Shown here one piece after another: positions 1,014-54,022 of a stretch of 64,000 nucleotides of DNA. Location of the stretch: positions 24,627 to 88,626 of the IMG/VR virus record IMGVR_UViG_3300025035_000013. One strand, 5' to 3'. The notes under the pieces were generated by a model. That model was not told where the DNA came from. It searched no databases and saw only the letters and a list, made by a program, of their open reading frames with translations. Position numbers and translations under genes: made by a program. Origin of the DNA: a virus. Position 1 is the first letter of the stretch; every line of letters starts with the position of its first letter.

Positions 1014-1582
1014 AGCAACCAATGCGCAACCTAAGAGATACCGTACATGCTAATGCCAAGAAAGAATCGAAACTATCTTGGCAGTGGTATGAAACTAATG
1101 TGAGAAATGCGGCAGCTGGAATGTCCGCTCAGAAGTTTCTGGGGGACAATCAAGCACATCAAAGTAAAAACGTAGTGCCGGGTGATATGGTAAGTTTCTT
1201 TTATTCTCCTAAGGGAAAAGATACCCTTCCTTATTATGATACATTCCCGATGAGTCTTCCTTTTAACACAGATTCTGATTCATTCACCGCACTCAATTTA
1301 CATTATCTACACCCAAGAGTAAGAGCAGCATTATTAGAAAAATTGATGGTATATAGCACAGATGATACTTTATCATCTAAAACTAAACTAGCATTCAGTT
1401 GGCAGGCATTAAAAACAGCATCTCAGTTCTCCGAGGTTTCTAATTGTGTCAAAAAATATTTATTCAAACAGGTAAAAAGTAACTTCATTATAATCCCACC
1501 AAACGAATGGAAATTTACGATATGGCTTCCTCTATGTCGTTTCAAGGGTGCCTCAAACGAAGAAGTCTGGAGTAAGAAATGA
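1010..1582 (+). CDS. gp2: DNA end protector protein (T4 gp2)
   Basis: Y-PK-K-TLPYYD-FP, LNLHYL-P--R and VKKYL motifs. Confidence 0.9.
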   Translation: MKQPMRNLRDTVHANAKKESKLSWQWYETNVRNAAAGMSAQKFLGDNQAHQSKNVVPGDMVSFFYSPKGKDTLPYYDTFPMSLPFNTDSDSFTALNLHYLHPRVRAALLEKLMVYSTDDTLSSKTKLAFSWQALKTASQFSEVSNCVKKYLFKQVKSNFIIIPPNEWKFTIWLPLCRFKGASNEEVWSKK

Positions 1583-2397
1583 GTATAAAAGACACCGTAG
1601 TTAACGGGCTGGAGGAATTAAAAAAACCTAGAAATGCTCTATTGTTGGGTGCATCTAAATATGCATATGACGTATTCGGTAAAAAAAATGTAGCTGAATC
1701 AACCCCACCAAATGATGATGCATTCTCATTATCATCGTTCACTGCAAAATTAAAAACTGATCAGTTCAGACTTTCTAAGGGGTATTATTACATTGGTTAT
1801 ATATTGGTTAATGGTGCTTCCTTAGAGGAGATAATGTCTATGGGGTTCCATTTAAACAAGGTGACATTGCCGGGCTGGAGAATCAAATCGCAACAAGCTA
1901 AAATATATGGACTGCAATATGAAATACCAATAGAATTAGAACAAGACCCTATGTGGATGACATTCAATGTGGATATAATGCACAGATTAGAAAAGTTCTT
2001 TATGCATAAAACAAAAGTATCGTTGTTTGATAAATCCTCTTATTCTCCTAAATATAAAGAAGAAGCGCAATTCAACATGCAATTAATAGTAACAGATGAA
2101 AATTTTACTCCAGTTCACAGTTACATTTTCGAAAATTGTTTTATAAAAACTGTATTGAATGTTAGTTATGGTGCATCGAATGTAGGACACCAAGAAATTA
2201 CCGTAGAACTAGTATACGAAACTGTTAAATATGAAGATATATTGACAGCAAGAAAATCAGGAAATATTGCACCTGATATTACATCTAAAAATAAACTTAA
2301 AATAGGGCCATTTAATGCAGACATAAGTGTTATAAATCAAGCAAAAGACACTATCAGTAATATACCAAAATGGTTTACAGGCGAAACAAAACTTTAA
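1579..2397 (+). CDS. baseplate/tail-tube junction protein (gp54/gp19-like fold)
   Basis: V-LPG, W-TF-VD and ITVEL-YE pattern typical of tail-tube fold proteins; position in the baseplate cluster. Confidence 0.5.
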   Translation: MSIKDTVVNGLEELKKPRNALLLGASKYAYDVFGKKNVAESTPPNDDAFSLSSFTAKLKTDQFRLSKGYYYIGYILVNGASLEEIMSMGFHLNKVTLPGWRIKSQQAKIYGLQYEIPIELEQDPMWMTFNVDIMHRLEKFFMHKTKVSLFDKSSYSPKYKEEAQFNMQLIVTDENFTPVHSYIFENCFIKTVLNVSYGASNVGHQEITVELVYETVKYEDILTARKSGNIAPDITSKNKLKIGPFNADISVINQAKDTISNIPKWFTGETKL

Positions 2398-2409
2398 AAG
2401 GAATATAAA

Positions 2410-3093
2410 ATGGCAATAATTGAAATGATGCTACCCGAATATATTTGCACTCTACCTATATCTAAAACGGTCGTTAAATATAGGCCCTTTACGGTGAAAG
2501 AAGAAAAAGTTCTTCTTTTAGCTAAAGAAGAGCAAAACACTGAAATGATGTTGACCTCAATGAACCAGATATTTAATAATTGTACGTTCGGCAAAATATC
2601 AATAGACAACATAAACAAAATAGATGCAGAATATTTGTTTCTTCAACTGAGATGCAAATCAATAGGAGAAGGCATCGATATTAAAGGTATATGCGAGGAG
2701 TGCGGAGTAAAAACTCCATTATTAATGGATTTAACTACTGCATTTGTTGCTGGTGAATTAAAGATTGAACCTATTGAGATAATGAAAGACATTTGGTTGA
2801 CAATGAAGGTGCCATCTTTAAAAGATTCTTTGCGGTTAAAAGAAGGAGATGATATTCTAGCGATTGCTATGTCACTTGATACTATAATTGAAGGGGAAAA
2901 TGTTAAACATGCCAGCGATTATACAGAACAGGAAAGGATAGAATTGATTGAATCTTTGATGAATAGTCAATTAGTAAAATTGACTCAATTCTATAAGAAC
3001 TTCCCTATATTAACTATAGATATAGAATACACATGCAAGTGCGAACATAAAAATAAAATTCACATTGAAGGCATAGATAATTTTTTCGCTTGA
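2410..3093 (+). CDS. gp26: baseplate hub assembly protein (T4 gp26-like)
   Basis: LP-Y---LP-S...YRPFTVKEEK-LL, D-EYLFLQLR-KSIGE, CxxC motifs. Confidence 0.85.
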   Translation: MAIIEMMLPEYICTLPISKTVVKYRPFTVKEEKVLLLAKEEQNTEMMLTSMNQIFNNCTFGKISIDNINKIDAEYLFLQLRCKSIGEGIDIKGICEECGVKTPLLMDLTTAFVAGELKIEPIEIMKDIWLTMKVPSLKDSLRLKEGDDILAIAMSLDTIIEGENVKHASDYTEQERIELIESLMNSQLVKLTQFYKNFPILTIDIEYTCKCEHKNKIHIEGIDNFFA

Positions 3094-3112
3094 GCCTCTC
3101 TGAAGAGGGGCT
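3081..3112 (+). promoter_or_regulatory. candidate -1 programmed ribosomal frameshift signal
   Basis: Slippery heptamer T TTT TTC (3081-3087), 5-nt spacer, 8-bp hairpin AGCCTCTC-TGAA-GAGGGGCT (3093-3112). Confidence 0.7.
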
Positions 3113-3248
3113 GGCAGAATATTTTAAACTTAATTTCTCTCTTATCAACAATAAACACTTCACGTTGGCAGAGTTGGAAGATATGTTGCCGTGGGAAAGA
3201 AGTATATATGTTGGATTATTGAAACAGAAACAAGAAAAAGAGGATTGA
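3090..3248 (+). CDS. gp51: baseplate hub assembly catalyst (gp51-like), not in the ORF track
   Basis: Manual translation LSLSEEGLAEYFKLNFSLINNKHFTLAELEDMLPWERSIYVGLLKQKQEKED* has the gp51-like LE-M-PWER-IY motif; lies in the -1 frame of gp26. Confidence 0.7.
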   Translation: MSLSEEGLAEYFKLNFSLINNKHFTLAELEDMLPWERSIYVGLLKQKQEKED

Positions 3249-3249
3249 A

Positions 3250-5049
3250 ATGTCTATTTTATCGGACAACGCGTTAGTTAAACAAAAGAAACGATTTGAT
3301 GCTGTGATTAAGGTCATGGCATATAATATAGTTGACGGACATCTTACTAATACTAATGCTCTACCTACGCCGGCTGAAGTAAATGGCATGATAAAAGACG
3401 AAGAGACTGAACTTCGTATATTATTCAAGACAAATAAAACAGAGTTTAACAATTATTTAAATTCATATTTCCACACGGTTAAAGGTAAACATATTGCTAC
3501 CTTAGCCCCTGATATGCAGGATTTATTAATTGAAGAGGGAGCAGTAACCTCTGGTGGTAAAATATCGGCTGGGGCCGCGCGTGCCGTAAAAAGTGGACTA
3601 GGTAAATTGCATGTGAGAGCATCTGCATCTCAACTCGGTATTGATATTAAACCATCTACCGCTAGAACTGGTATATTGGATACATTTAAATCGAGATATT
3701 ATGACCCAAATACTCCAAAGACTACCGCAGAGAATAAACAGCTAGTGCTTGATAAAAGGGGATTCGCAGAAGACGACAAATATCGTGCTCTAATTCTTTC
3801 TGAAGAAAAAAGAATATTAGATAAAAAGCATCTAGCCACAGAGGAAGAAATTCGGTTATTGAAGGCAATCAAAGAAACAAAAGTACAATGGGACAAGAAG
3901 GTAATGTCCAATGAAAGATTTAGAGCATCATTAAGTCCAGCAGGCAAAGGGTTGGATGATGTTCTGACTGTGGCAAAGTCAGGATTAAGTTCTATAATGA
4001 AATTCTTGCTTACACCAAAGCAACCCAAAAATGTCCAAGCTGTGGAAAATCCTCCTGTTGTTGCCCCTACTCCTACGCCTGTTGTTGCACCTACTCCTGT
4101 ACCTCCAAAAAATAATATCACAACAAAAGAGTCAGAATTGCCATTAATGGCAACCCCAAAGTACAGGCAACCTCAAAAGTCGAATATAAAGATAGAAGAA
4201 AAGAATCTTGCTGCTAATGATAGTGTATTTGAGGAAGAAAAAGATGAATCAGCTGATGAACTGATAGAAAGTACAAAAGAAGCGGCAAAAAAGAATTATG
4301 AAATCCTTGTACAGATAGATGAGGATATTAAGAATTTGAAGGGAACTGGCGAGGAATCCTCTTTAATAGATACAATATCTGCCGGAATATCAGGAGCATT
4401 AGCATCAAAACTTTTACCAGCATTAAAATCTATTGTTGGTTCAATTGCTAGAATAGCCGTGCCAGCGGCATTGATTGCAGGTGCTGGTGCGGCTGGATAT
4501 GCTGCTGGCACAAGTATATTAAAATCTATTGGTGAACTGGATGAAAATGGCAACATCGCTGGCGATAGTGTAATCGGTAAAGTGACTTCTTTTTTGTCTG
4601 GAGCAGATACCGATGCCGAAAATGCTGCTAAGCCTGTTCCCATGGATTTGGAACACATCTCAACTGCCCGATTAATTCAATTAAATAAATCGAGGGTGGC
4701 TCAAGGCAAGGACGAATTATATAGAGACGAAGCATCTCAAAAGAAATGGGATGCTGAACGAGCCGCGATGCGGGCAGCGAGAGCAGCAGCAGCCAAGAAA
4801 CTTGAAACTCAACCAAAAAATACTGCTGAGGAATTAGATAAACAATCTACTATTATTGAGAAAAATAAAAATACAGCCAAAGCACAAGAAGTAGCGGCGG
4901 CAGTTGGTTCTGCTATCACTCAAAGTAATCAACAGACCATCCAAAATATATCTACTGTCGCTAATGATAATAACAGACAAAAAGATAGCCCTCGAAATCA
5001 AGATAATAGTATTTCACTATTCTTGAAAACGAGAGCTAAATTTGCTTAA
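3250..5049 (+). CDS. baseplate hub / tape-measure-like protein (gp29-like)
   Basis: 599 aa, helical and Ala/Gly-rich hydrophobic stretch, Pro-Thr linker; follows gp26/gp51. Confidence 0.55.
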   Translation: MSILSDNALVKQKKRFDAVIKVMAYNIVDGHLTNTNALPTPAEVNGMIKDEETELRILFKTNKTEFNNYLNSYFHTVKGKHIATLAPDMQDLLIEEGAVTSGGKISAGAARAVKSGLGKLHVRASASQLGIDIKPSTARTGILDTFKSRYYDPNTPKTTAENKQLVLDKRGFAEDDKYRALILSEEKRILDKKHLATEEEIRLLKAIKETKVQWDKKVMSNERFRASLSPAGKGLDDVLTVAKSGLSSIMKFLLTPKQPKNVQAVENPPVVAPTPTPVVAPTPVPPKNNITTKESELPLMATPKYRQPQKSNIKIEEKNLAANDSVFEEEKDESADELIESTKEAAKKNYEILVQIDEDIKNLKGTGEESSLIDTISAGISGALASKLLPALKSIVGSIARIAVPAALIAGAGAAGYAAGTSILKSIGELDENGNIAGDSVIGKVTSFLSGADTDAENAAKPVPMDLEHISTARLIQLNKSRVAQGKDELYRDEASQKKWDAERAAMRAARAAAAKKLETQPKNTAEELDKQSTIIEKNKNTAKAQEVAAAVGSAITQSNQQTIQNISTVANDNNRQKDSPRNQDNSISLFLKTRAKFA

Positions 5050-5918
5050 TCCGCTTTTTCAGATAGACTTCGAATCAGATTCATCACATCATCTGTATCA
5101 TCATCTGTTGATACTTCAACTCGCTTAGTAGCTACTTTTGCTTCTTTTACTACTTTTTGTGTATCCTCGACTTCTTCATTTGCCCTATCATCTACTTCAG
5201 GCGCTTTTACCAAGACAAAAGCAAGACGTTTTCGCAATGCATCAGCAGATTTAAATTGATCCTTCTGGATAAATTTCTGTGGGTCATTTTCTGCCGTATA
5301 CTGCGCCATGAAATCGACATCAATATCACCGCCAGCTTCAAACGTTGACTTTCCATAATTAACCTGCCCATCTACCTTACGAATTCGAAGCTTGAAGTTT
5401 GGCCAATTGTTTTCATCGCCTTCTACACCAAATACATTATATTTCGCATCGTCCTCATCAACTGGTTGCAATGCATCTGCAATCATATCGAATACCTTTG
5501 TGCCGAATTTGTAAAGATATACTTTACCTTCGTGCTCTTGGTTCTTCTTATCTTCGATGACAAGAATACGAGCGATATATGATGTTTTGCGATTCATCCC
5601 GTACTTTCTAGCATCATCCTTCGACATCGAAGCATATAACTTACCATTTTCAATACATACTGGGCATTCCTCATCGATTGAAGTAAGGCAATTATCAATC
5701 AACCATTTACCGTTCGGTCCTTGAAAACCATGGGTATACAACTTAACAAATGGAACATCTTCTTCGTTAGCTGCAGGTAGGAATCGGATAACAGCTGAAC
5801 CATTACCGGCGGCGTCTCGAGTTGGATAATAGAAGAATTCATCTGTTCTATCAAAGGAAGAATTGGTTTTTGCTTTTTGGACTGCTGCTAGGAGTTTGTT
5901 CATTGCTGAATTTGACAT
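5046..5918 (-). CDS. gp32: single-stranded DNA-binding protein (T4 gp32)
   Basis: GNGSAVIRFLPA, HGFQ...W-I-NC, CPVC, RK-SY, acidic C-tail. Confidence 0.95.
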   Translation of the reverse strand: MSNSAMNKLLAAVQKAKTNSSFDRTDEFFYYPTRDAAGNGSAVIRFLPAANEEDVPFVKLYTHGFQGPNGKWLIDNCLTSIDEECPVCIENGKLYASMSKDDARKYGMNRKTSYIARILVIEDKKNQEHEGKVYLYKFGTKVFDMIADALQPVDEDDAKYNVFGVEGDENNWPNFKLRIRKVDGQVNYGKSTFEAGGDIDVDFMAQYTAENDPQKFIQKDQFKSADALRKRLAFVLVKAPEVDDRANEEVEDTQKVVKEAKVATKRVEVSTDDDTDDVMNLIRSLSEKAD

Positions 5919-33784: not shown

Positions 33785-34052
33785 CAGTGTAAATTACTTC
33801 GTTAGCATTCAATTGTTCAATAAGAATATCTTTTAATATATCTCCTGTCAACTTTTCAAATTCTTCTGTTGAATTTTTATCAATTTCACCTTCGAACACA
33901 TCATATACAAATGATAATTTGGCGGCATCTTCTATTTCCTCAACTGCTACTCTGCCATAAGCAAACGTAATGCCACTGAATTTACCATCGGTGATTTGAA
34001 TAGGGCAAACACCAGTAGAGGTCGGTTCGCGCACTTTATATAGTTTTGTCAT
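33759..34052 (-). CDS. head vertex assembly chaperone-like protein (gp40 position)
   Basis: Between uvsX and gp41 as in T4; I--G-F-G----YG-V pattern. Confidence 0.5.
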   Translation of the reverse strand: MTKLYKVREPTSTGVCPIQITDGKFSGITFAYGRVAVEEIEDAAKLSFVYDVFEGEIDKNSTEEFEKLTGDILKDILIEQLNANEVIYTGGTDGIKN

Positions 34053-34563
34053 CTTTCACCTCCGCGTTCATTGGATTAACTGACAATTGAAATTTATTTT
34101 TCACGAATTTATAGAAATCTGGATTAGATAAAATCGGCGCCCAAAATGTTTTATTATGAGTATCTGCTTCTCTGACTTTCTTTTCATCCAATATCTCACC
34201 AGTATTTTTATCTACTCTTATATACCAACCATTAGAAGGTTTTTGAACAAACCCGCTTTCTAATGCAAGTTCAAGTAAACCAGAATACTTATCAATACCA
34301 CCATCGAACATAACCTGAAACTGAAGTTTGCTTTTTTCTTTCACGAATCTCGATTTTTCAATGTTGATTGTAAAATTATAACCTACCACCTCTGTTCCCG
34401 CCTTTTCTTGAGACCTGCCGATGATGAAAATCTGATTTGAGGAATAGTAGAGGCCCGTATTGTGTGTAACAATACCATTTTCAAGAATATAATGCTCAAC
34501 ATCTTCCACAGATATATCATATACTGGTTTAATCCCAACATTCTCTATCTTTATTAATTTCAT
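34036..34563 (-). CDS. uvsX: split-intein C fragment (35 aa) fused to the UvsX C-extein
   Basis: MKLIKIE...VYDISVE--EHYILENGIVTHN|TGLYYSSNQIFIIGR; own GGAG RBS. Confidence 0.9.
   Translation of the reverse strand: MKLIKIENVGIKPVYDISVEDVEHYILENGIVTHNTGLYYSSNQIFIIGRSQEKAGTEVVGYNFTINIEKSRFVKEKSKLQFQVMFDGGIDKYSGLLELALESGFVQKPSNGWYIRVDKNTGEILDEKKVREADTHNKTFWAPILSNPDFYKFVKNKFQLSVNPMNAEVKDDKTI
34459..34563 (-). mobile_element. split intein IntC
   Basis: Block F (VYDISV) and block G (THN) followed by Thr+1. Confidence 0.9.
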
Positions 34564-34676
34564 TTTCTTTTCTCCATGTCTATTTTGTTATTCTGCCTCG
34601 GTAATAGTATTTGCCGCTGCTACACTCCTTGATTATTTTCACCCTATTTTAACTGCCCCTCTGTAGAGGATGTCAA

Positions 34677-35582
34677 TCATCTAACCACAAAAATATGATT
34701 TTCTGTGAGATTTTTTGCTTCTACCCACCCCTCCGATGTTAAAAATGGATGATTTTCTGAAACTGTTACTGAATAACCATCATCAAATGTAAATCTAATA
34801 CATTCTGGGGTTCCGTGTAACAACGTATCTGGATTCCATGTATGTGTTACTTTTTTAGGCCCATTTAATGTATTCACCATATCTCCTACATTAATAGATT
34901 CAATAGTCTTCTTTTGACCGTCCGCCATTTCTAACTGTGTGCCTGCAAGCAAACACCCACCACTAACGACCGTCCGCGCGAACGGTCCCACTTCGGCATA
35001 TACGTGGTTGACTGCAATACATGGCAAATCTTTTACTGTCAGGTGTGGAGTAATAATACGAAACAAACTCTTAAGTGATTTAGCTCGAGTCATATCAGCT
35101 ACTGACTTTTCATTTTCTGCATCTTCAACTTCTTTCTTCGACGCAAGATTGCCAATAGAATCGATAAAAATGATTACCTTATCACCTTTTTTAATTTCTG
35201 CTAGGCGCTTTGTGATGTCAAATTTTAATTGTTCGATGTGTTCAAGTGGAATATGTAATACTCGTTCTGTGTCAATTCCATGCGATAACATATATTCAGG
35301 AGTAATGCCGAACTCAGAATCATAAAATAAACATACGGCCTCTTTATATTTCTTCATGTATGAACTTACACAAACAAGACCAAGATTAGATTTGAAGTGT
35401 TTTGAAGGTCCTGCAAGAATTGTAAGACCTGATACTATCCCACCATCAAGTATACCGCTAAATGCTACGTTGATAATAGGGATATTTGTTTGAACTAAAT
35501 CTTTTGGAGCAAAGAAACTTGATGCTGCTACTGTTTCTGCTTTAATTGAACCTACTGCTTTAAGTTTGTCTAATAGACTCAT
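34677..35582 (-). CDS. uvsX: UvsX/RecA recombinase N-extein fused to split-intein N fragment
   Basis: GPSKHFKS, FYDSEFG, IDSIGNL, NHVY; then GG|CLLAGT intein block A. Confidence 0.92.
   Translation of the reverse strand: MSLLDKLKAVGSIKAETVAASSFFAPKDLVQTNIPIINVAFSGILDGGIVSGLTILAGPSKHFKSNLGLVCVSSYMKKYKEAVCLFYDSEFGITPEYMLSHGIDTERVLHIPLEHIEQLKFDITKRLAEIKKGDKVIIFIDSIGNLASKKEVEDAENEKSVADMTRAKSLKSLFRIITPHLTVKDLPCIAVNHVYAEVGPFARTVVSGGCLLAGTQLEMADGQKKTIESINVGDMVNTLNGPKKVTHTWNPDTLLHGTPECIRFTFDDGYSVTVSENHPFLTSEGWVEAKNLTENHIFVVR
34680..34955 (-). mobile_element. split intein IntN (92 aa)
   Basis: Block A CLLAGTQL, block B TVSENHPFLT, GWVEA; ends at a TGA stop. Confidence 0.9.
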
Positions 35583-35646: not shown

Positions 35647-36639
35647 TCAGTCAAAAAATGATTCTAATGAACTTTCTTCTCTCAATTTCCAGCCAGCACA
35701 ATCTGTCAATGATTTCATTGCATTTTCTACTGTCTTCTCAAACTGCGTATCATAATCTAAGTATCCATGCAGTTTAAATTCAGGAGGCAAATCAATATTA
35801 GAAGGAAAGCCTATTACGTTTTGTCTAATTGGATTTGGCATCTTCAAATATAAGAATTTTATTTTGTCCCCATTTTGAATTTGTTGATATTGTTTGAATT
35901 TAACTGCATTCATATTGAACAGACAGGCTGCCCTTACATGCATAGGTACTGTCATGCCGGTTCTAATTGCATTATTTGCAAAATATTTGCCAATATCACT
36001 CACTCCCCGCGGGAATGCTACTTCACTAGGCGGCAATGTTTTGAATTCTTTCTCCAGTTCCAAAAATCTCTTTCGTAGAGTATATTCATCTGATTCAAAC
36101 ATCAACTGTAATAATTCTTTTAATTTATTTCTGCACCATTTAGGGGTAGACGACCTTACAATCTCAATTCCCATTACTTTAAGTTTAGGTGGATTGTATG
36201 CAACCCCTTCGGAGTTATATACATACATTGCGTAGTTCTTTTTTGCTCGATATAACATCTTTGACGCAATTGCTTCTCTCTTACTTCCCATTATTTTATC
36301 ATAAGCATTCATTTTATCAAAAATCACACTGACGCTATTATTGATAATTGGTTGACATATTTTATTAGCGAAATCATCCAAAAATTTAACAACATCACCT
36401 GTCGATTTGTTTGACGCAAATTTATCTACAATTCTCTGACAATTAATAATCACAGAGTCAGTGTCGCCTGCAATAATATAATCTACATCTTTTGTTTCTA
36501 ATATTTTATTGAAATTCATATTCAACAAATTTGCCAAATGGATGTCTGATAGTTGACCAGTAAGTGTAATCGCCTCAGCCATGCGATAATCATAATAATG
36601 GAACCCCTCATTGCCAATGCTGCCGAATGCAGAATTCGC
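35647..36639 (-). CDS. gp43: DNA polymerase gp43B, exon 2
   Basis: ANSAFGSIGN (motif B), AGDTDS (motif C), KKNYA, G-EIVRSSTP, C-terminal SLESFF clamp-binding motif. Confidence 0.92.
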   Translation of the reverse strand, partial: ANSAFGSIGNEGFHYYDYRMAEAITLTGQLSDIHLANLLNMNFNKILETKDVDYIIAGDTDSVIINCQRIVDKFASNKSTGDVVKFLDDFANKICQPIINNSVSVIFDKMNAYDKIMGSKREAIASKMLYRAKKNYAMYVYNSEGVAYNPPKLKVMGIEIVRSSTPKWCRNKLKELLQLMFESDEYTLRKRFLELEKEFKTLPPSEVAFPRGVSDIGKYFANNAIRTGMTVPMHVRAACLFNMNAVKFKQYQQIQNGDKIKFLYLKMPNPIRQNVIGFPSNIDLPPEFKLHGYLDYDTQFEKTVENAMKSLTDCAGWKLREESSLESFFD

Positions 36640-36879
36640 CTTTTGTGTTTAAATGAAGTCGTTAATTTCATCCCATATAGCTGCATATTACTATGCAGAA
36701 CAGACTATCTCTTCACCTTCACAGGTGCTATGCGCTTCGAGTCACTTGACCCTACGGCTTTCGCCTAGTCGTTACACCTTCCCATATTAGGGCTTGGCTC
36801 GGTATTGTCCCAATTTGGGATGTTCACCGAATTCACATAGTTTTCAATTACAAATTTCTTTGTATTGCGCCCACGATTA
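36640..36879 (-). mobile_element. group I self-splicing intron, 240 nt, no homing endonuclease
   Basis: U|TAA 5' junction, terminal G; P GAATTCGGTGAA, Q AATACCGAGCCAAG, R AACGACTA, S GAAGAGATAGTCTG; P3 CTATGTG/CGCATAG; removal restores KIA-ANSAFG. Confidence 0.9.
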
Positions 36880-36984
36880 AGCGATTTTCAATGCAAGTTG
36901 TTTATTTTTTAATGCTGCTATTTTTGCTCTACTACTATTTCTCAATTCTAAAAGCTCGTCTAAAGTCATTTCTGAATAATTCAT
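36880..36984 (-). CDS. gp43: DNA polymerase gp43B, exon 1 (35 codons)
   Basis: MNYSEMTLDELL...KQLALKIA; AGGA RBS. Confidence 0.85.
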
Positions 36985-37015: not shown

Positions 37016-38512
37016 CTACGGTCGCGCTGCGCGTTCACTTATTTCCCTTTCTATAATTTGATATTCCGATTCTAGTCGAAGCATTTCTTTTTTAGCTATT
37101 GCACGACCAGTCATACAATATTCCATCAATTCTGCTAGAAATCCTTTTTTGGATTTATCATACATTGTACCATTTGCAGCAATTGTATGATTGATTGATT
37201 TTGCATAATCAATGGCAGCAATAGCATCTGCATCATTATCCAAGAAATTTCTTGCTCTAATATCATATTCCGGTGCTCTAAATGTCTCCGGCGATATGTT
37301 CCATTGACGAATAACAGAAGGATATAGGGATGAGAAGTCGAAAGACATACACCATCCATACATGCCCTGTATACCGTCTTTCACCCATGCACCTTCTACA
37401 TCCCCCCTCAATCCATTTTTTCGAGGCGGAACTGCAATCTTTTTCTTATTCAAGTGATGATAGATGAATGCTTCCCATGGAGCAACAGTGCGATATACAT
37501 CTCCTAGATTGCAATGATACATATATGCCATAGCAAAAGCAAGTTCAATCAACTTCATCTTGTCTTCTAATTTCTTAACAAGAATTGAGTCTATCGCATT
37601 ATATCTCACGAAAGTGTCGAAGTGGTTTACGTAAGAATCTCTGAATGACACCCCTGGTAATTCAAGTTTTGTTTCGCCAAGTTCTTCTTGGGCAATAAAT
37701 CCTAATGCGTACGATTCTTTCGATGAATATGTGCCGAATTTCTTATAGAGTTCAAGATAATCCAAGTCTATGATACCATAAATCTCATACGTCTGAATTT
37801 CTTTTCCACGGATATTAACCATCTTTTCACGAATATAATTGAATGGCGATAGCCGTTTAACTTGTGTCTCATCAAATAGTAGTTTGATTCGATTAATCAT
37901 ATATGGTATATCGAATCCTGATGTATTCCACCCCGTCCAAACATCTGGTTTTGTTGCAATCTGAAATTCGATAAAAAACTTTAATAGTTCTTTCTCAGTA
38001 TCAAATTTTTTATATATAAAGGCATCAGACTCAACTTTATCAAACTCTTTTAATCCTAATACGACCGTTTTATCTGTTATATTATCGTGTATAGATATGA
38101 GAACAATCGGAATGCGCGCTGCCTGAATATCAGGAAAACCTTCTTCGGAATCCTCATCTACTGTTTCGATGTCTATCGTGTGAATTTTTACATGTGATAT
38201 ATCATATTCAATATCTCCTGGAAATTTTGAATTTATATATTGAAGGTTCCACTTAGTCATGCCATGAAGTTCAATCCCATGGACATCCTTATACATTTCT
38301 ACATAATCTTTTGCTTCTCGGATATTATTGAATTGAATTGGTTCGAGTGGGGTGTTTTTGTATAAATCATTCCAAGATTTTTCGTCTCTATTTTTTGTGG
38401 AAACGAATAATGTAGGGCCAAAATCAATCTTTTCGATTATTTGTCGGCCCTTATCATATCCTCTATATAATATAGAATTACCAAGAGTTTGGCAATAAGT
38501 GTAAAATTTCAT
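37016..38512 (-). CDS. gp43: DNA polymerase gp43A (exonuclease plus N-terminal polymerase half)
   Basis: IDIE, TGWN--GFD-PY, YN--D, motif A SFDFSSLYPS; ends in the fingers helix. Confidence 0.92.
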   Translation of the reverse strand: MKFYTYCQTLGNSILYRGYDKGRQIIEKIDFGPTLFVSTKNRDEKSWNDLYKNTPLEPIQFNNIREAKDYVEMYKDVHGIELHGMTKWNLQYINSKFPGDIEYDISHVKIHTIDIETVDEDSEEGFPDIQAARIPIVLISIHDNITDKTVVLGLKEFDKVESDAFIYKKFDTEKELLKFFIEFQIATKPDVWTGWNTSGFDIPYMINRIKLLFDETQVKRLSPFNYIREKMVNIRGKEIQTYEIYGIIDLDYLELYKKFGTYSSKESYALGFIAQEELGETKLELPGVSFRDSYVNHFDTFVRYNAIDSILVKKLEDKMKLIELAFAMAYMYHCNLGDVYRTVAPWEAFIYHHLNKKKIAVPPRKNGLRGDVEGAWVKDGIQGMYGWCMSFDFSSLYPSVIRQWNISPETFRAPEYDIRARNFLDNDADAIAAIDYAKSINHTIAANGTMYDKSKKGFLAELMEYCMTGRAIAKKEMLRLESEYQIIEREISERAARP

Positions 38513-51712: not shown

Positions 51713-54022
51713 TTAGTGCAATTCACACTGCCCACCCGCGCAGGCAACCTGTTCTTTTAGTGTAGTATTATCATCATGTTCAATAACATTACTTAAGTCA
51801 ATATTGTGTTGAAGAATTTTTATCATTTCATTATATTTTTCTTCAGTAATATCTTCAAATGGCGCCTGGATATAAGTCCCACCATCGTACGGAAGAACAG
51901 AAATTCCAGTGTAGAAATCTCGATTTTTCCACATCCATCTACCACATTTGCCCCATTCCTTTGCTTTCAATGAGATTGTGCAAGATACATTGTGATAATT
52001 TTTTCCATCAACATGTCCCTCATGCACCCATTCGATATTGAATCGTTTGACTCGTTCTAGCAAGTTCATAAATGATTCGCTTCGGACAATTGAACCAGTT
52101 GGAGCTTTTTGAGGGAACGACATCACAGCTTCAATGTGTGGTTTATGATAGCAGTCTTCTACTAAATCAGGAAAATTATCTTTCATGTATGAATACAATG
52201 GTTCATTCTTACCTACCCGCATCCTGCGGACGTAGAACTCATTATGCCATGCATGTATGCCGGATGAAGACCCCAGCACGCAGCTCGTAGTGCCACTCGG
52301 TTTTATAGTAGTATTGCGAGCGGCATGATTGACACCAATCAAATCAGCTACTCGAATATTTTCTTCTTTAACTGCCGCCGCGGCTGCGCGCAGGTCTAGG
52401 TTTAATACTGCGCCGGATGCAATACCAGTCATACCAACACCAATCAATGCTTCACGTTTGGTTGTTTCTTCCCATTCAGCCCTAAGATAATGAAAATCAG
52501 TATAACCTGCTTGCAATGTTCCTAGAAATGCCGCCGCTTTTGCACGCGAATTTAAATCTGCCTGGTCTATAATATCAGATGCATTAATTTCTGTAACATT
52601 ACAGAATTGATAGGGGTTCAGCGCAATTTCACAGTTATGAACTAAAATGTCATTCGCATAAAAGCAATGAGTCCCTTCTACTTCAAAATCATATACATCT
52701 TCTACATAGTTGAGTTTTTCTACTACTATCATATTATTCTTGCATCTTACACGCTCTATCGAATCGGGGGGCATGTATTCTTTTAAAATATCAGTTGACA
52801 ACAATTCGTCTGCTCTAACATATCCCCTATTCTCTGTAAATATTCGATGGTCTGGAGTACAGATTATATGATTGTTAGAAATTGTATCAGTAACTTTAAC
52901 CAATTCTGCATTCTTTCTAGTCAATCTCCCATCAATTACATGTTGCATAATGGCAGTATCGCCATTCCATGAAAGTATATCAACTTTATTACCATCTTTA
53001 ATTAATTCTACAACATCAGACGACTTCATTGTTTGCACTGGGCAACCATTAAATGATACTTGAACTTTGGTATCACCTGAAACACAGCAAGGATTTGTTC
53101 CCCAGTCTATATCATTAGTCCAGAAAATACCTGGCTCCCCCGCTCCAGATTCTTCTACACGTTCCCATATATCAAAAAATTCTTCTTCTGTCAAATTTTT
53201 TCTATCTAGCACAACTGAATTATTAGCACGACCTCGGGATGGATTCAATTCCCACCAAGCCCCGGATTTACTAGATAACATGTCCATATCGTCATGTGAA
53301 AACAATGAAATCATAGCAGCCCTACGAATACCACCAGATAAAACTGCATCAGCAATATGGCATTGTATATCATGTGCTTCAATTGGTTGCAACTTTCTGC
53401 CAGTCGCATTAGTCAATATCGATCGTATTTGTTCTATACAAATACGCAAGGGAGCAGGGCCGGGTGCTTTACCTCCAGATGTAACTAGACGCGCTCCTTT
53501 ATGACGAATATCTCTATAATCAAACACAGGGTCTGACTTATTATAAAAATAAGCTTCAACCAAAATCTTAATTGCATCCGCCCAGCCTTCAATGGAATCA
53601 CCGATTAAGAATCTTCGAGTCTTATCTTTTGGCCCAATCACGATTGGTAATTTGGCGATTTGGTGCTTCTGAATACCGAAACCTACCCCTGTGCCGCCCA
53701 GTAATAGAAACATTGTTTCCGAGAATGCATCGGTATGTTCTATTGGCAAATATGCACAATTATACATACGATTATTAGACAATTCGATTGAATTGCCACC
53801 GAATTGAAGAGACCGCATAGAAGGCAATACTTTTTTCGGTAGAACAAAGTCAGAATAAACTTGTTTAATTTCTTTTTTAAGAATAGGATATTTACTAATG
53901 TGCATTGACATGTTGCGCTCGCACAGCTCTTGCCACGTTTCTCGTCTAGCTAGCTCAGGGATATATCTTGCATATTTGTTAAAAATTGTAATTTCAGAGA
54001 GAATTGTTTGAGAGACATCCAT
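51713..54022 (-). CDS. nrdJ: class II (B12-dependent) ribonucleotide reductase NrdJ with intein
   Basis: KYA...RETW, PS-R-L, NC, GG-RRAA, TNPC|CEI, C-L-E, TIKPSGT, ACAGG-CE. Confidence 0.93.
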   Translation of the reverse strand: MDVSQTILSEITIFNKYARYIPELARRETWQELCERNMSMHISKYPILKKEIKQVYSDFVLPKKVLPSMRSLQFGGNSIELSNNRMYNCAYLPIEHTDAFSETMFLLLGGTGVGFGIQKHQIAKLPIVIGPKDKTRRFLIGDSIEGWADAIKILVEAYFYNKSDPVFDYRDIRHKGARLVTSGGKAPGPAPLRICIEQIRSILTNATGRKLQPIEAHDIQCHIADAVLSGGIRRAAMISLFSHDDMDMLSSKSGAWWELNPSRGRANNSVVLDRKNLTEEEFFDIWERVEESGAGEPGIFWTNDIDWGTNPCCVSGDTKVQVSFNGCPVQTMKSSDVVELIKDGNKVDILSWNGDTAIMQHVIDGRLTRKNAELVKVTDTISNNHIICTPDHRIFTENRGYVRADELLSTDILKEYMPPDSIERVRCKNNMIVVEKLNYVEDVYDFEVEGTHCFYANDILVHNCEIALNPYQFCNVTEINASDIIDQADLNSRAKAAAFLGTLQAGYTDFHYLRAEWEETTKREALIGVGMTGIASGAVLNLDLRAAAAAVKEENIRVADLIGVNHAARNTTIKPSGTTSCVLGSSSGIHAWHNEFYVRRMRVGKNEPLYSYMKDNFPDLVEDCYHKPHIEAVMSFPQKAPTGSIVRSESFMNLLERVKRFNIEWVHEGHVDGKNYHNVSCTISLKAKEWGKCGRWMWKNRDFYTGISVLPYDGGTYIQAPFEDITEEKYNEMIKILQHNIDLSNVIEHDDNTTLKEQVACAGGQCELH
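52634..53086 (-). mobile_element. contiguous 151-aa mini-intein in NrdJ
   Basis: C1 CVSGDT, CTPDH block B, VYDFEV block F, ILVHN|C block G; no endonuclease domain. Confidence 0.93.

Follow-up and report, generated by a model that had tools for sequence, protein, structure and literature searches.

The window analyzed here is a stretch of 64,000 nucleotides from a T4-like groundwater phage (positions 24,627 to 88,626 of IMG/VR record IMGVR_UViG_3300025035_000013, a 98.7-kb virus contig). At positions 34036-35582, on the minus strand, the gene for the recombinase UvsX is present as two genes, each of which carries one half of an intein. The first open reading frame (ORF-N, 35582..34677) encodes 301 residues, which are UvsX residues 1-209 followed by an N-terminal intein half of 92 residues (IntN). 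The UvsX part (N-extein, 34956..35582) has an intact Walker A motif, GPSKHFKS, and ends in ...VVSGG, which is directly followed by C-L-L-A-G-T. IntN occupies 34680..34955; its Cys1 codon (TGT, 34955..34953) comes directly after Gly209, and its block B reads Ser66-Glu-Asn-His69-Pro-Phe. The frame closes with a TGA stop codon (34677..34679). A spacer of 113 bp (34564..34676) separates ORF-N from the second frame. It has no ORF of at least 30 residues, contains three stops in the frame of ORF-N, and carries the ribosome-binding site GGAG (34575..34572) 8 nt ahead of the ATG of ORF-C. ORF-C (34563..34036; 175 residues) lies in a different frame (offset 2), and this ATG is the first start codon of its open frame. 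It begins with a C-terminal intein half of 35 residues (IntC, 34459..34563; M-K-L-I-K...I-V-T-H-N) with a basic N-terminal stretch. Its block F is Y-D-I-S-V and its block G is N-G-I-V-T-H-N, with His34-Asn35 at the end and Thr+1 immediately after. The C-extein (34039..34458; 140 residues, T-G-L-Y-Y-S...) starts with this Thr+1 (codon ACG, 34458..34456) and is terminated by TAA (34038..34036). Both ORFs thus fuse an extein to an intein half, and both have a start codon and a ribosome-binding site of their own.

Both exteins are recognizable as UvsX. The N-extein matches the RecA family PF00154 with 34.9 bits and aligns with positions 4-186 of the chain of T4 UvsX (PDB ID: 3IO5; expectation value E 1.6e-73). 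The C-extein matches PF21134 (T4_UVSX_C) with 62.3 bits and aligns with the same chain from position 187. The insertion is therefore precise, because the extein ends fall on the consecutive positions 186 and 187 of T4 UvsX (...GGG/TG..., the slash marking the insertion point). It is also in frame, and the host protein is contiguous after removal of the intein. The coordinates, junctions, and lengths given in the original prediction, which was made from the letters of the window alone, are correct to the base, and its statement that splicing would restore a GG-TG sequence agrees with this alignment. In the RecA fold, the GG/TG site lies at the C-terminal edge of the DNA-binding loop region L2.

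The inserted halves have the features of a class 1 intein. IntC scores 35.0 bits with the NCBIfam profile TIGR01443 (intein_Cterm), well above the cut-off of 15.6. Across 19 aligned related inteins, Cys1, Thr6, the block B motif Ser-x-x-His-x-Phe, the block F motif Y-D..V, and the block G motif N-G-x-V-x-H-N are invariant (19/19), and the +1 residue is Thr in 16 and Ser in 3. The Thr+1 nucleophile had been put forward as a distinguishing mark of this intein. It is indeed present, but it is the native UvsX residue rather than a special feature of the intein: in a junction survey of IMG/VR loci, whose matches include some IntC junctions of intein-bearing loci, 71 of the 74 matches have Thr at this position of UvsX and the other 3 have Ser. 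One IMG/VR contig (L015) encodes a UvsX that is 88.5% identical to the conceptually spliced protein of the window, and its site is uninterrupted (VSGG-SGLYYS). Five one-piece (cis) versions of 129-134 residues have a variable linker, and it is there that every split form is broken. On this alignment, the break corresponds to the canonical split site, which is also the classical endonuclease-insertion site between blocks B and F. Among the phages HY03, CF-SP2, and Pm5461, the ratios of nonsynonymous to synonymous substitution rates (dN/dS) are 0.07-0.11 for IntN, 0.04-0.05 for IntC, and 0.03-0.23 for the exteins. The intein halves are as constrained as the exteins in these phages, which indicates purifying selection on the halves. 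For the window and L088, a second contig with a split version, the IntN ratio is 0.24, at a dS near saturation.

Structure prediction places the family among inteins. An AlphaFold2 model was calculated for one of the one-piece versions (the corresponding part of P0016, not the halves of the window; mean predicted local distance difference test score, pLDDT, 77.7). The top 50 Foldseek matches of this model are all inteins or intein-like HINT domains. The first is the gp41-1 intein (PDB ID: 6QAZ), with E 1.6e-8, template modeling scores of 0.60/0.67, and 21% identity. The solved relatives closest by sequence are Npu DnaE and gp41-1 (E 5e-8 to 1e-3), and the IntN of the window itself matches 6QAZ with E 1.4e-3. 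IntN contains an additional cysteine, the non-catalytic Cys52 (34800-34802, minus strand), in the motif W-N-P-D-T-L..G-x-P-E-C. The cysteine of the G-x-P-E/D-C motif is present in all 19 aligned inteins and in the further N-halves retrieved, and the W-N/D-P-x-T-L segment that bears it is a gap in the gp41-1 alignment.

The original prediction suggested that this may be a new orthogonal split intein. An emphasis on uniqueness is too strong: the same site holds related inteins, some of them in one piece, in numerous metagenome contigs and in 36 GenBank phage records. The 36 records were found by tblastn with ORF-N including IntN (19 distinct phages among the 25 matches listed). Among cultured Straboviridae, the carriers include Escherichia phage HY03, Proteus phages Pm5461 and PM2, Salmonella phages CF-SP2 and SEA1, Yersinia phage TG1, Shewanella phage Thanatos-1, and Vibrio phage vB_VmeM-32; PspYZU05 is a further carrier. 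In the three GenBank records examined, the layout is UvsX-N with IntN, a gene for a GIY-YIG/NUMOD endonuclease of 240 residues, and IntC with UvsX-C; the uvsX pieces are annotated only as recombination or DNA repair proteins. These cultured Straboviridae share with the window the host protein, the GG/TG site, the invariant residues, and homologous halves (IntN of about 96 and IntC of 35 residues). They differ from it in sequence (about 55% identity over ORF-N) and in having an endonuclease gene between the halves where the window has its 113-bp non-coding spacer. The gp41 of the window phage is only 53% identical to its best matches in the phage collection, and the phage is a distant T4-like lineage from aquifers. 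The phages phiM12 and PX29 gave IntC-like matches in tblastn but have ordinary intein-free uvsX genes (355 and 411 residues) and were set aside.

In metagenomes, one-piece mini-inteins of 129-134 residues occur at GG/TG in P0013, P0016, P0022, L010, and L035. There are also split forms with GIY-YIG/NUMOD3, HNH, or unclassified endonuclease ORFs between the halves. Two IMG/VR contigs look like endonuclease decay in progress: L012 (3909-4646) has a 736-bp spacer with an HNH/NUMOD3 endonuclease ORF of 233 residues, and L014 (1274-1554), whose halves differ from those of L012 by one residue, has a 279-bp spacer with only the 3' part of such an ORF. L088 is a second endonuclease-free split version, with an 81-bp spacer. 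Several states of the site are represented. It may be empty or hold a one-piece mini-intein; where the intein is split, the halves may enclose a GIY-YIG or HNH endonuclease gene, a decaying one, or none. A full HMMER scan with IntN gave 1383 cluster representatives at E ≤ 1e-3. Judged by length and match position, most of those with about 50-61% identity are putative UvsX pieces. Identity is less than about 45% for most of the others, many of which are long proteins with several matching stretches. A tree was built from 18 related inteins, and only 2 of its 15 inner branches are well supported. In it the window groups, at moderate support (89/84), with the endonuclease-bearing L091, so the endonuclease may have been lost more than once.

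Taken from its sequence, the locus is very probably a functional, naturally split class 1 mini-intein at the conserved GG/TG of uvsX. UvsX is encoded here as two genes, each with an intein half, and joining after translation is thus most likely needed. Trans-splicing appears to be the best explanation for how an intact recombinase is made. The two ORFs would probably be co-transcribed and each translated from its own ribosome-binding site. IntN (92 residues) and IntC (35 residues) would associate into one HINT fold, a thioester would form between Cys1 and Gly209, and its attack by the hydroxyl of Thr+1 would give a branched ester. Cyclization of Asn35 of IntC and an O-to-N shift would then yield a UvsX of 349 residues with a native GG-TG peptide bond. 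The earlier claim that functional UvsX depends on trans-splicing is supported to this extent, as the best explanation. The split uvsX is the sole RecA-family match in the source record, but the record is only 57% complete.

Several observations weigh against this reading. IntN scores 22.3 bits with NCBIfam TIGR01445 (intein_Nterm), just below the cut-off of 24.5. Pfam Intein_splicing gives 20.8 against 35.8, and all Pfam Hint-type matches are below their gathering scores. Block B has Ser where Thr is usual, in all the related inteins and in the aligned gp41-1. The splicing chemistry at the UvsX site is inferred from conserved residues. When IntN and IntC of the window were predicted as a complex (pLDDT 70-76), the score was 0.58 against 0.01 for the best control, which is graded as weak support. 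In the calibration of this score, 51 of 78 solved complexes attained the mark, as did 2 of 108 mismatched pairs; scores of 0.60 or below were obtained for only 5 of the 78 solved complexes but for all 4 passing mismatches (of 180). Because split-intein complexes have been solved, the predictor may owe this score to memorized structures. The incompleteness of the record leaves room for a second uvsX elsewhere. The sole evidence of expression is a 222-nt contig from an aquifer metatranscriptome run (X24) that matches the N-extein exactly (window 35050-35271); it hints at expression in situ, with carried-over DNA being possible. The tree is too poorly resolved to give the order of split and one-piece events or the direction of change. 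The spacer shows no endonuclease remnant, and loss of an endonuclease is thus inferred from the relatives.

Three other explanations of the locus were weighed. A sequencing or assembly error inside a one-piece mini-intein would produce a stop and a gap, and one-piece versions do occur at the same UvsX site. The chance of this is negligible. The two ORFs are separated by three in-frame stops and a frame shift of 2, and the IntC of split relatives begins at the same aligned Met. The exact 301-residue product of ORF-N is indexed in 82 blocks of the assembly collection, and in all 24 contigs examined the gene layout including the 113-bp gap is identical. The TGA stop and the spacer, whose reality had been flagged for checking, are bridged with zero differences in separately assembled contigs of three runs (hot spring 2025, groundwater, and aquifer). 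The hot-spring run is a possible source of the window DNA and may not be independent; the window DNA is present in more than 20 aquifer or groundwater runs as well as in that 2025 hot-spring study.

It is also conceivable that the halves associate without splicing, so that UvsX would be a non-covalent enzyme of two chains held together by a dead split intein. Genes in pieces can work unspliced, as in the case of Aeh1 nrdA; moreover, the N-terminal profile scores are below threshold, and the prediction of the complex speaks to association only. We nevertheless regard this as very unlikely. Cys1, the block B His, the terminal His-Asn, and a Thr or Ser at +1 are invariant in the 19 related inteins, among them one-piece versions, in which the L2-proximal site can become free only through splicing. 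A domain of 127 residues at the edge of L2 would probably obstruct the filament. Rather less likely still is that uvsX is an interrupted and decaying gene, with the host RecA or another phage gene taking over recombination. The close relative L015 has an intact gene, and the record is incomplete, but neither ORF is damaged, and each has a start codon and a ribosome-binding site. The exteins are highly identical to those of relatives, with a low dN/dS. Many samples contain the identical arrangement, and the architecture is kept in the 36 GenBank phage records. On balance, we favor a split intein that splices. Whether such splicing is conditional is a separate matter. The invariant extra cysteine could serve, for example, as a redox trap with Cys1 or in sensing of single-stranded DNA or the filament state at the edge of L2; we consider this improbable. 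If true, the maturation of UvsX would be timed during infection rather than constitutive.

The spacer was searched for traces of other elements. Its local alignment score against the region between the halves of L091, which holds the endonuclease gene, is 13, compared with 14.1 ± 1.9 for shuffled sequences, so no remnant was detected. When the spacers of the window and L088 are compared, only the ribosome-binding site can be aligned. An RNA element or intron in the spacer was rejected, as Rfam gave no match at E ≤ 1 and the RNA fold z-score of +0.48 indicates no significant structure. Under the rules of the scan, the spacer has neither a terminator-like site nor a promoter; a TTGACA directly after the stop was not counted as a promoter because its spacing to TAAAAT is 19 nt. 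With no terminator between the ORFs, co-transcription with separate translation starts is the simplest reading.

This architecture belongs to a known class. Dassa et al. (2009; PMC2677866) described fractured genes, in which a host enzyme is broken at a conserved site by a split intein, with gp41-1 to gp41-9, NrdJ-1, NrdA-2, IMPDH-1, DnaE, ligase, and terminase as hosts; UvsX appears there as a neighboring gene only and not as an intein host. Those inteins lie in replication and recombination genes of T4-like phages and have IntN of 88-105 and IntC of 33-54 residues, sizes like those of the window. A free-standing homing endonuclease gene between the halves, a feature of the fractured genes of that study, is absent from the window and present in its relatives. 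There is a precedent for its absence in gp41-7, a fractured arrangement without an endonuclease gene (PMC2677866). The window thus appears to be an endonuclease-free derivative or variant of this type, like gp41-7. It may be an endonuclease-free form of a mobile cassette, composed of IntN, a homing endonuclease gene, and IntC, that moves among T4-like phages, the endonuclease gene having been wholly lost or never having been there. An intein at the UvsX GG/TG site is not reported in the literature consulted, including Dassa 2009, a review of T4 mobile elements, Pinto 2020, and the Mootz papers. The family is present in public sequences but apparently undescribed, and the window would be an endonuclease-free addition to it.

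Among solved inteins, gp41-1 (PDB ID: 6QAZ, 6RIZ) is the top structural match and one of the closest PDB sequence matches of the UvsX family. Both have the Ser-x-x-His block B and an IntC ending in T-H-N. At about 21% identity, they differ in that the UvsX family adds the W-N-P-D/E-T-L..G-x-P-E/D-C segment with its invariant second Cys. The cyanobacterial DnaE inteins (Npu/Ssp; PDB ID: 4KL5, 4KL6, 2KEQ) resemble the window in the canonical split, the absence of an endonuclease, and an IntC of about 35 residues, with about 24% identity to the UvsX family. Their host gene is cellular, the halves are far apart in the genome, and the +1 residue is Cys. The RecA and RadA inteins (Mtu RecA, PDB ID: 2IMZ/3IFJ; Pho RadA, PDB ID: 4E2T/4E2U) have the HINT fold and reside in the same recombinase superfamily, but they are in one piece and only weakly similar in sequence. 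They probably occupy other insertion sites, that of RadA being in the P-loop. The GG/TG site may correspond to the RecA-b insertion site of M. leprae. Atypically split VidaL UvsX inteins were reportedly named by Thiel and co-workers in 2014. The solved VidaL intein (PDB ID: 6VGV) is a weak match to the UvsX GG/TG family (E 0.018) and has no match to the long IntC of P0012.

UvsX genes of relatives also carry inteins at other sites. In L097, an ENA metagenome scaffold (1475-5524), two split inteins divide uvsX into three protein pieces, and two endonuclease-like ORFs are present as well. The first piece, of 79 residues, reads ...GPSKHFK/C-L-G-G-D-T-P-I-T-I-Y-Y-Q-stop. This is an IntN of only 13 residues at the Walker A site; its partner, an IntC of about 128 residues, stands at the start of P0027. 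The 13-residue IntN is shorter than the VidaL IntN (16 residues) and the IntN of PolB16 OarG (15 residues), which has been termed the shortest (PMC10189870). A third UvsX intein site lies about 8 residues upstream of GG/TG, within the L2 region (L009, 3001-5500; P0026 and L098, 3001-4020). L009 belongs to the lineage of the window (91% extein identity) and has a different split intein at this third site (...ETG/C...HN/SMYAKTIVSGG), with an ORF of 333 residues between the halves. In P0026, an IntC at the third site is followed by 12 extein residues and then by a one-piece intein at GG/TG.

The window contains two further intervening elements. A one-piece mini-intein of 151 residues (52634-53086, minus strand) lies in a class II ribonucleotide reductase (NrdJ-like, 769 residues; ORF 51713-54022), with the junctions N-P-C/C...V-H-N/C-E-I-A-L; it scores 38.4 bits with Intein_splicing and 32.8 bits with TIGR01443. 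A group I intron (36681-36889, minus strand; RF00028, 93.9 bits, E 3.5e-24, full-length model) is located in the DNA polymerase region just upstream of uvsX, where the polymerase is in separate ORFs (38512..37016 and 36582..35647).

The phage-derived split inteins gp41-1 and NrdJ-1 are among the fastest protein-ligation tools known. The UvsX family has at most about 25% identity to any solved intein and may thus be a reasonable candidate for a non-cross-reacting partner. As a ligation tool it would offer a short IntC of 35 residues, Cys1/Thr+1 chemistry, and natural Ser+1 variants, and the halves of the window version, which has no endonuclease gene, would be usable as they are. In biological terms, this is a homing element hosted by the very recombinase on which homing depends. 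Empty, one-piece, endonuclease-bearing, and endonuclease-free states exist at one site, partly in culturable coliphages, which brings the origin and decay of split inteins within reach of experiment.

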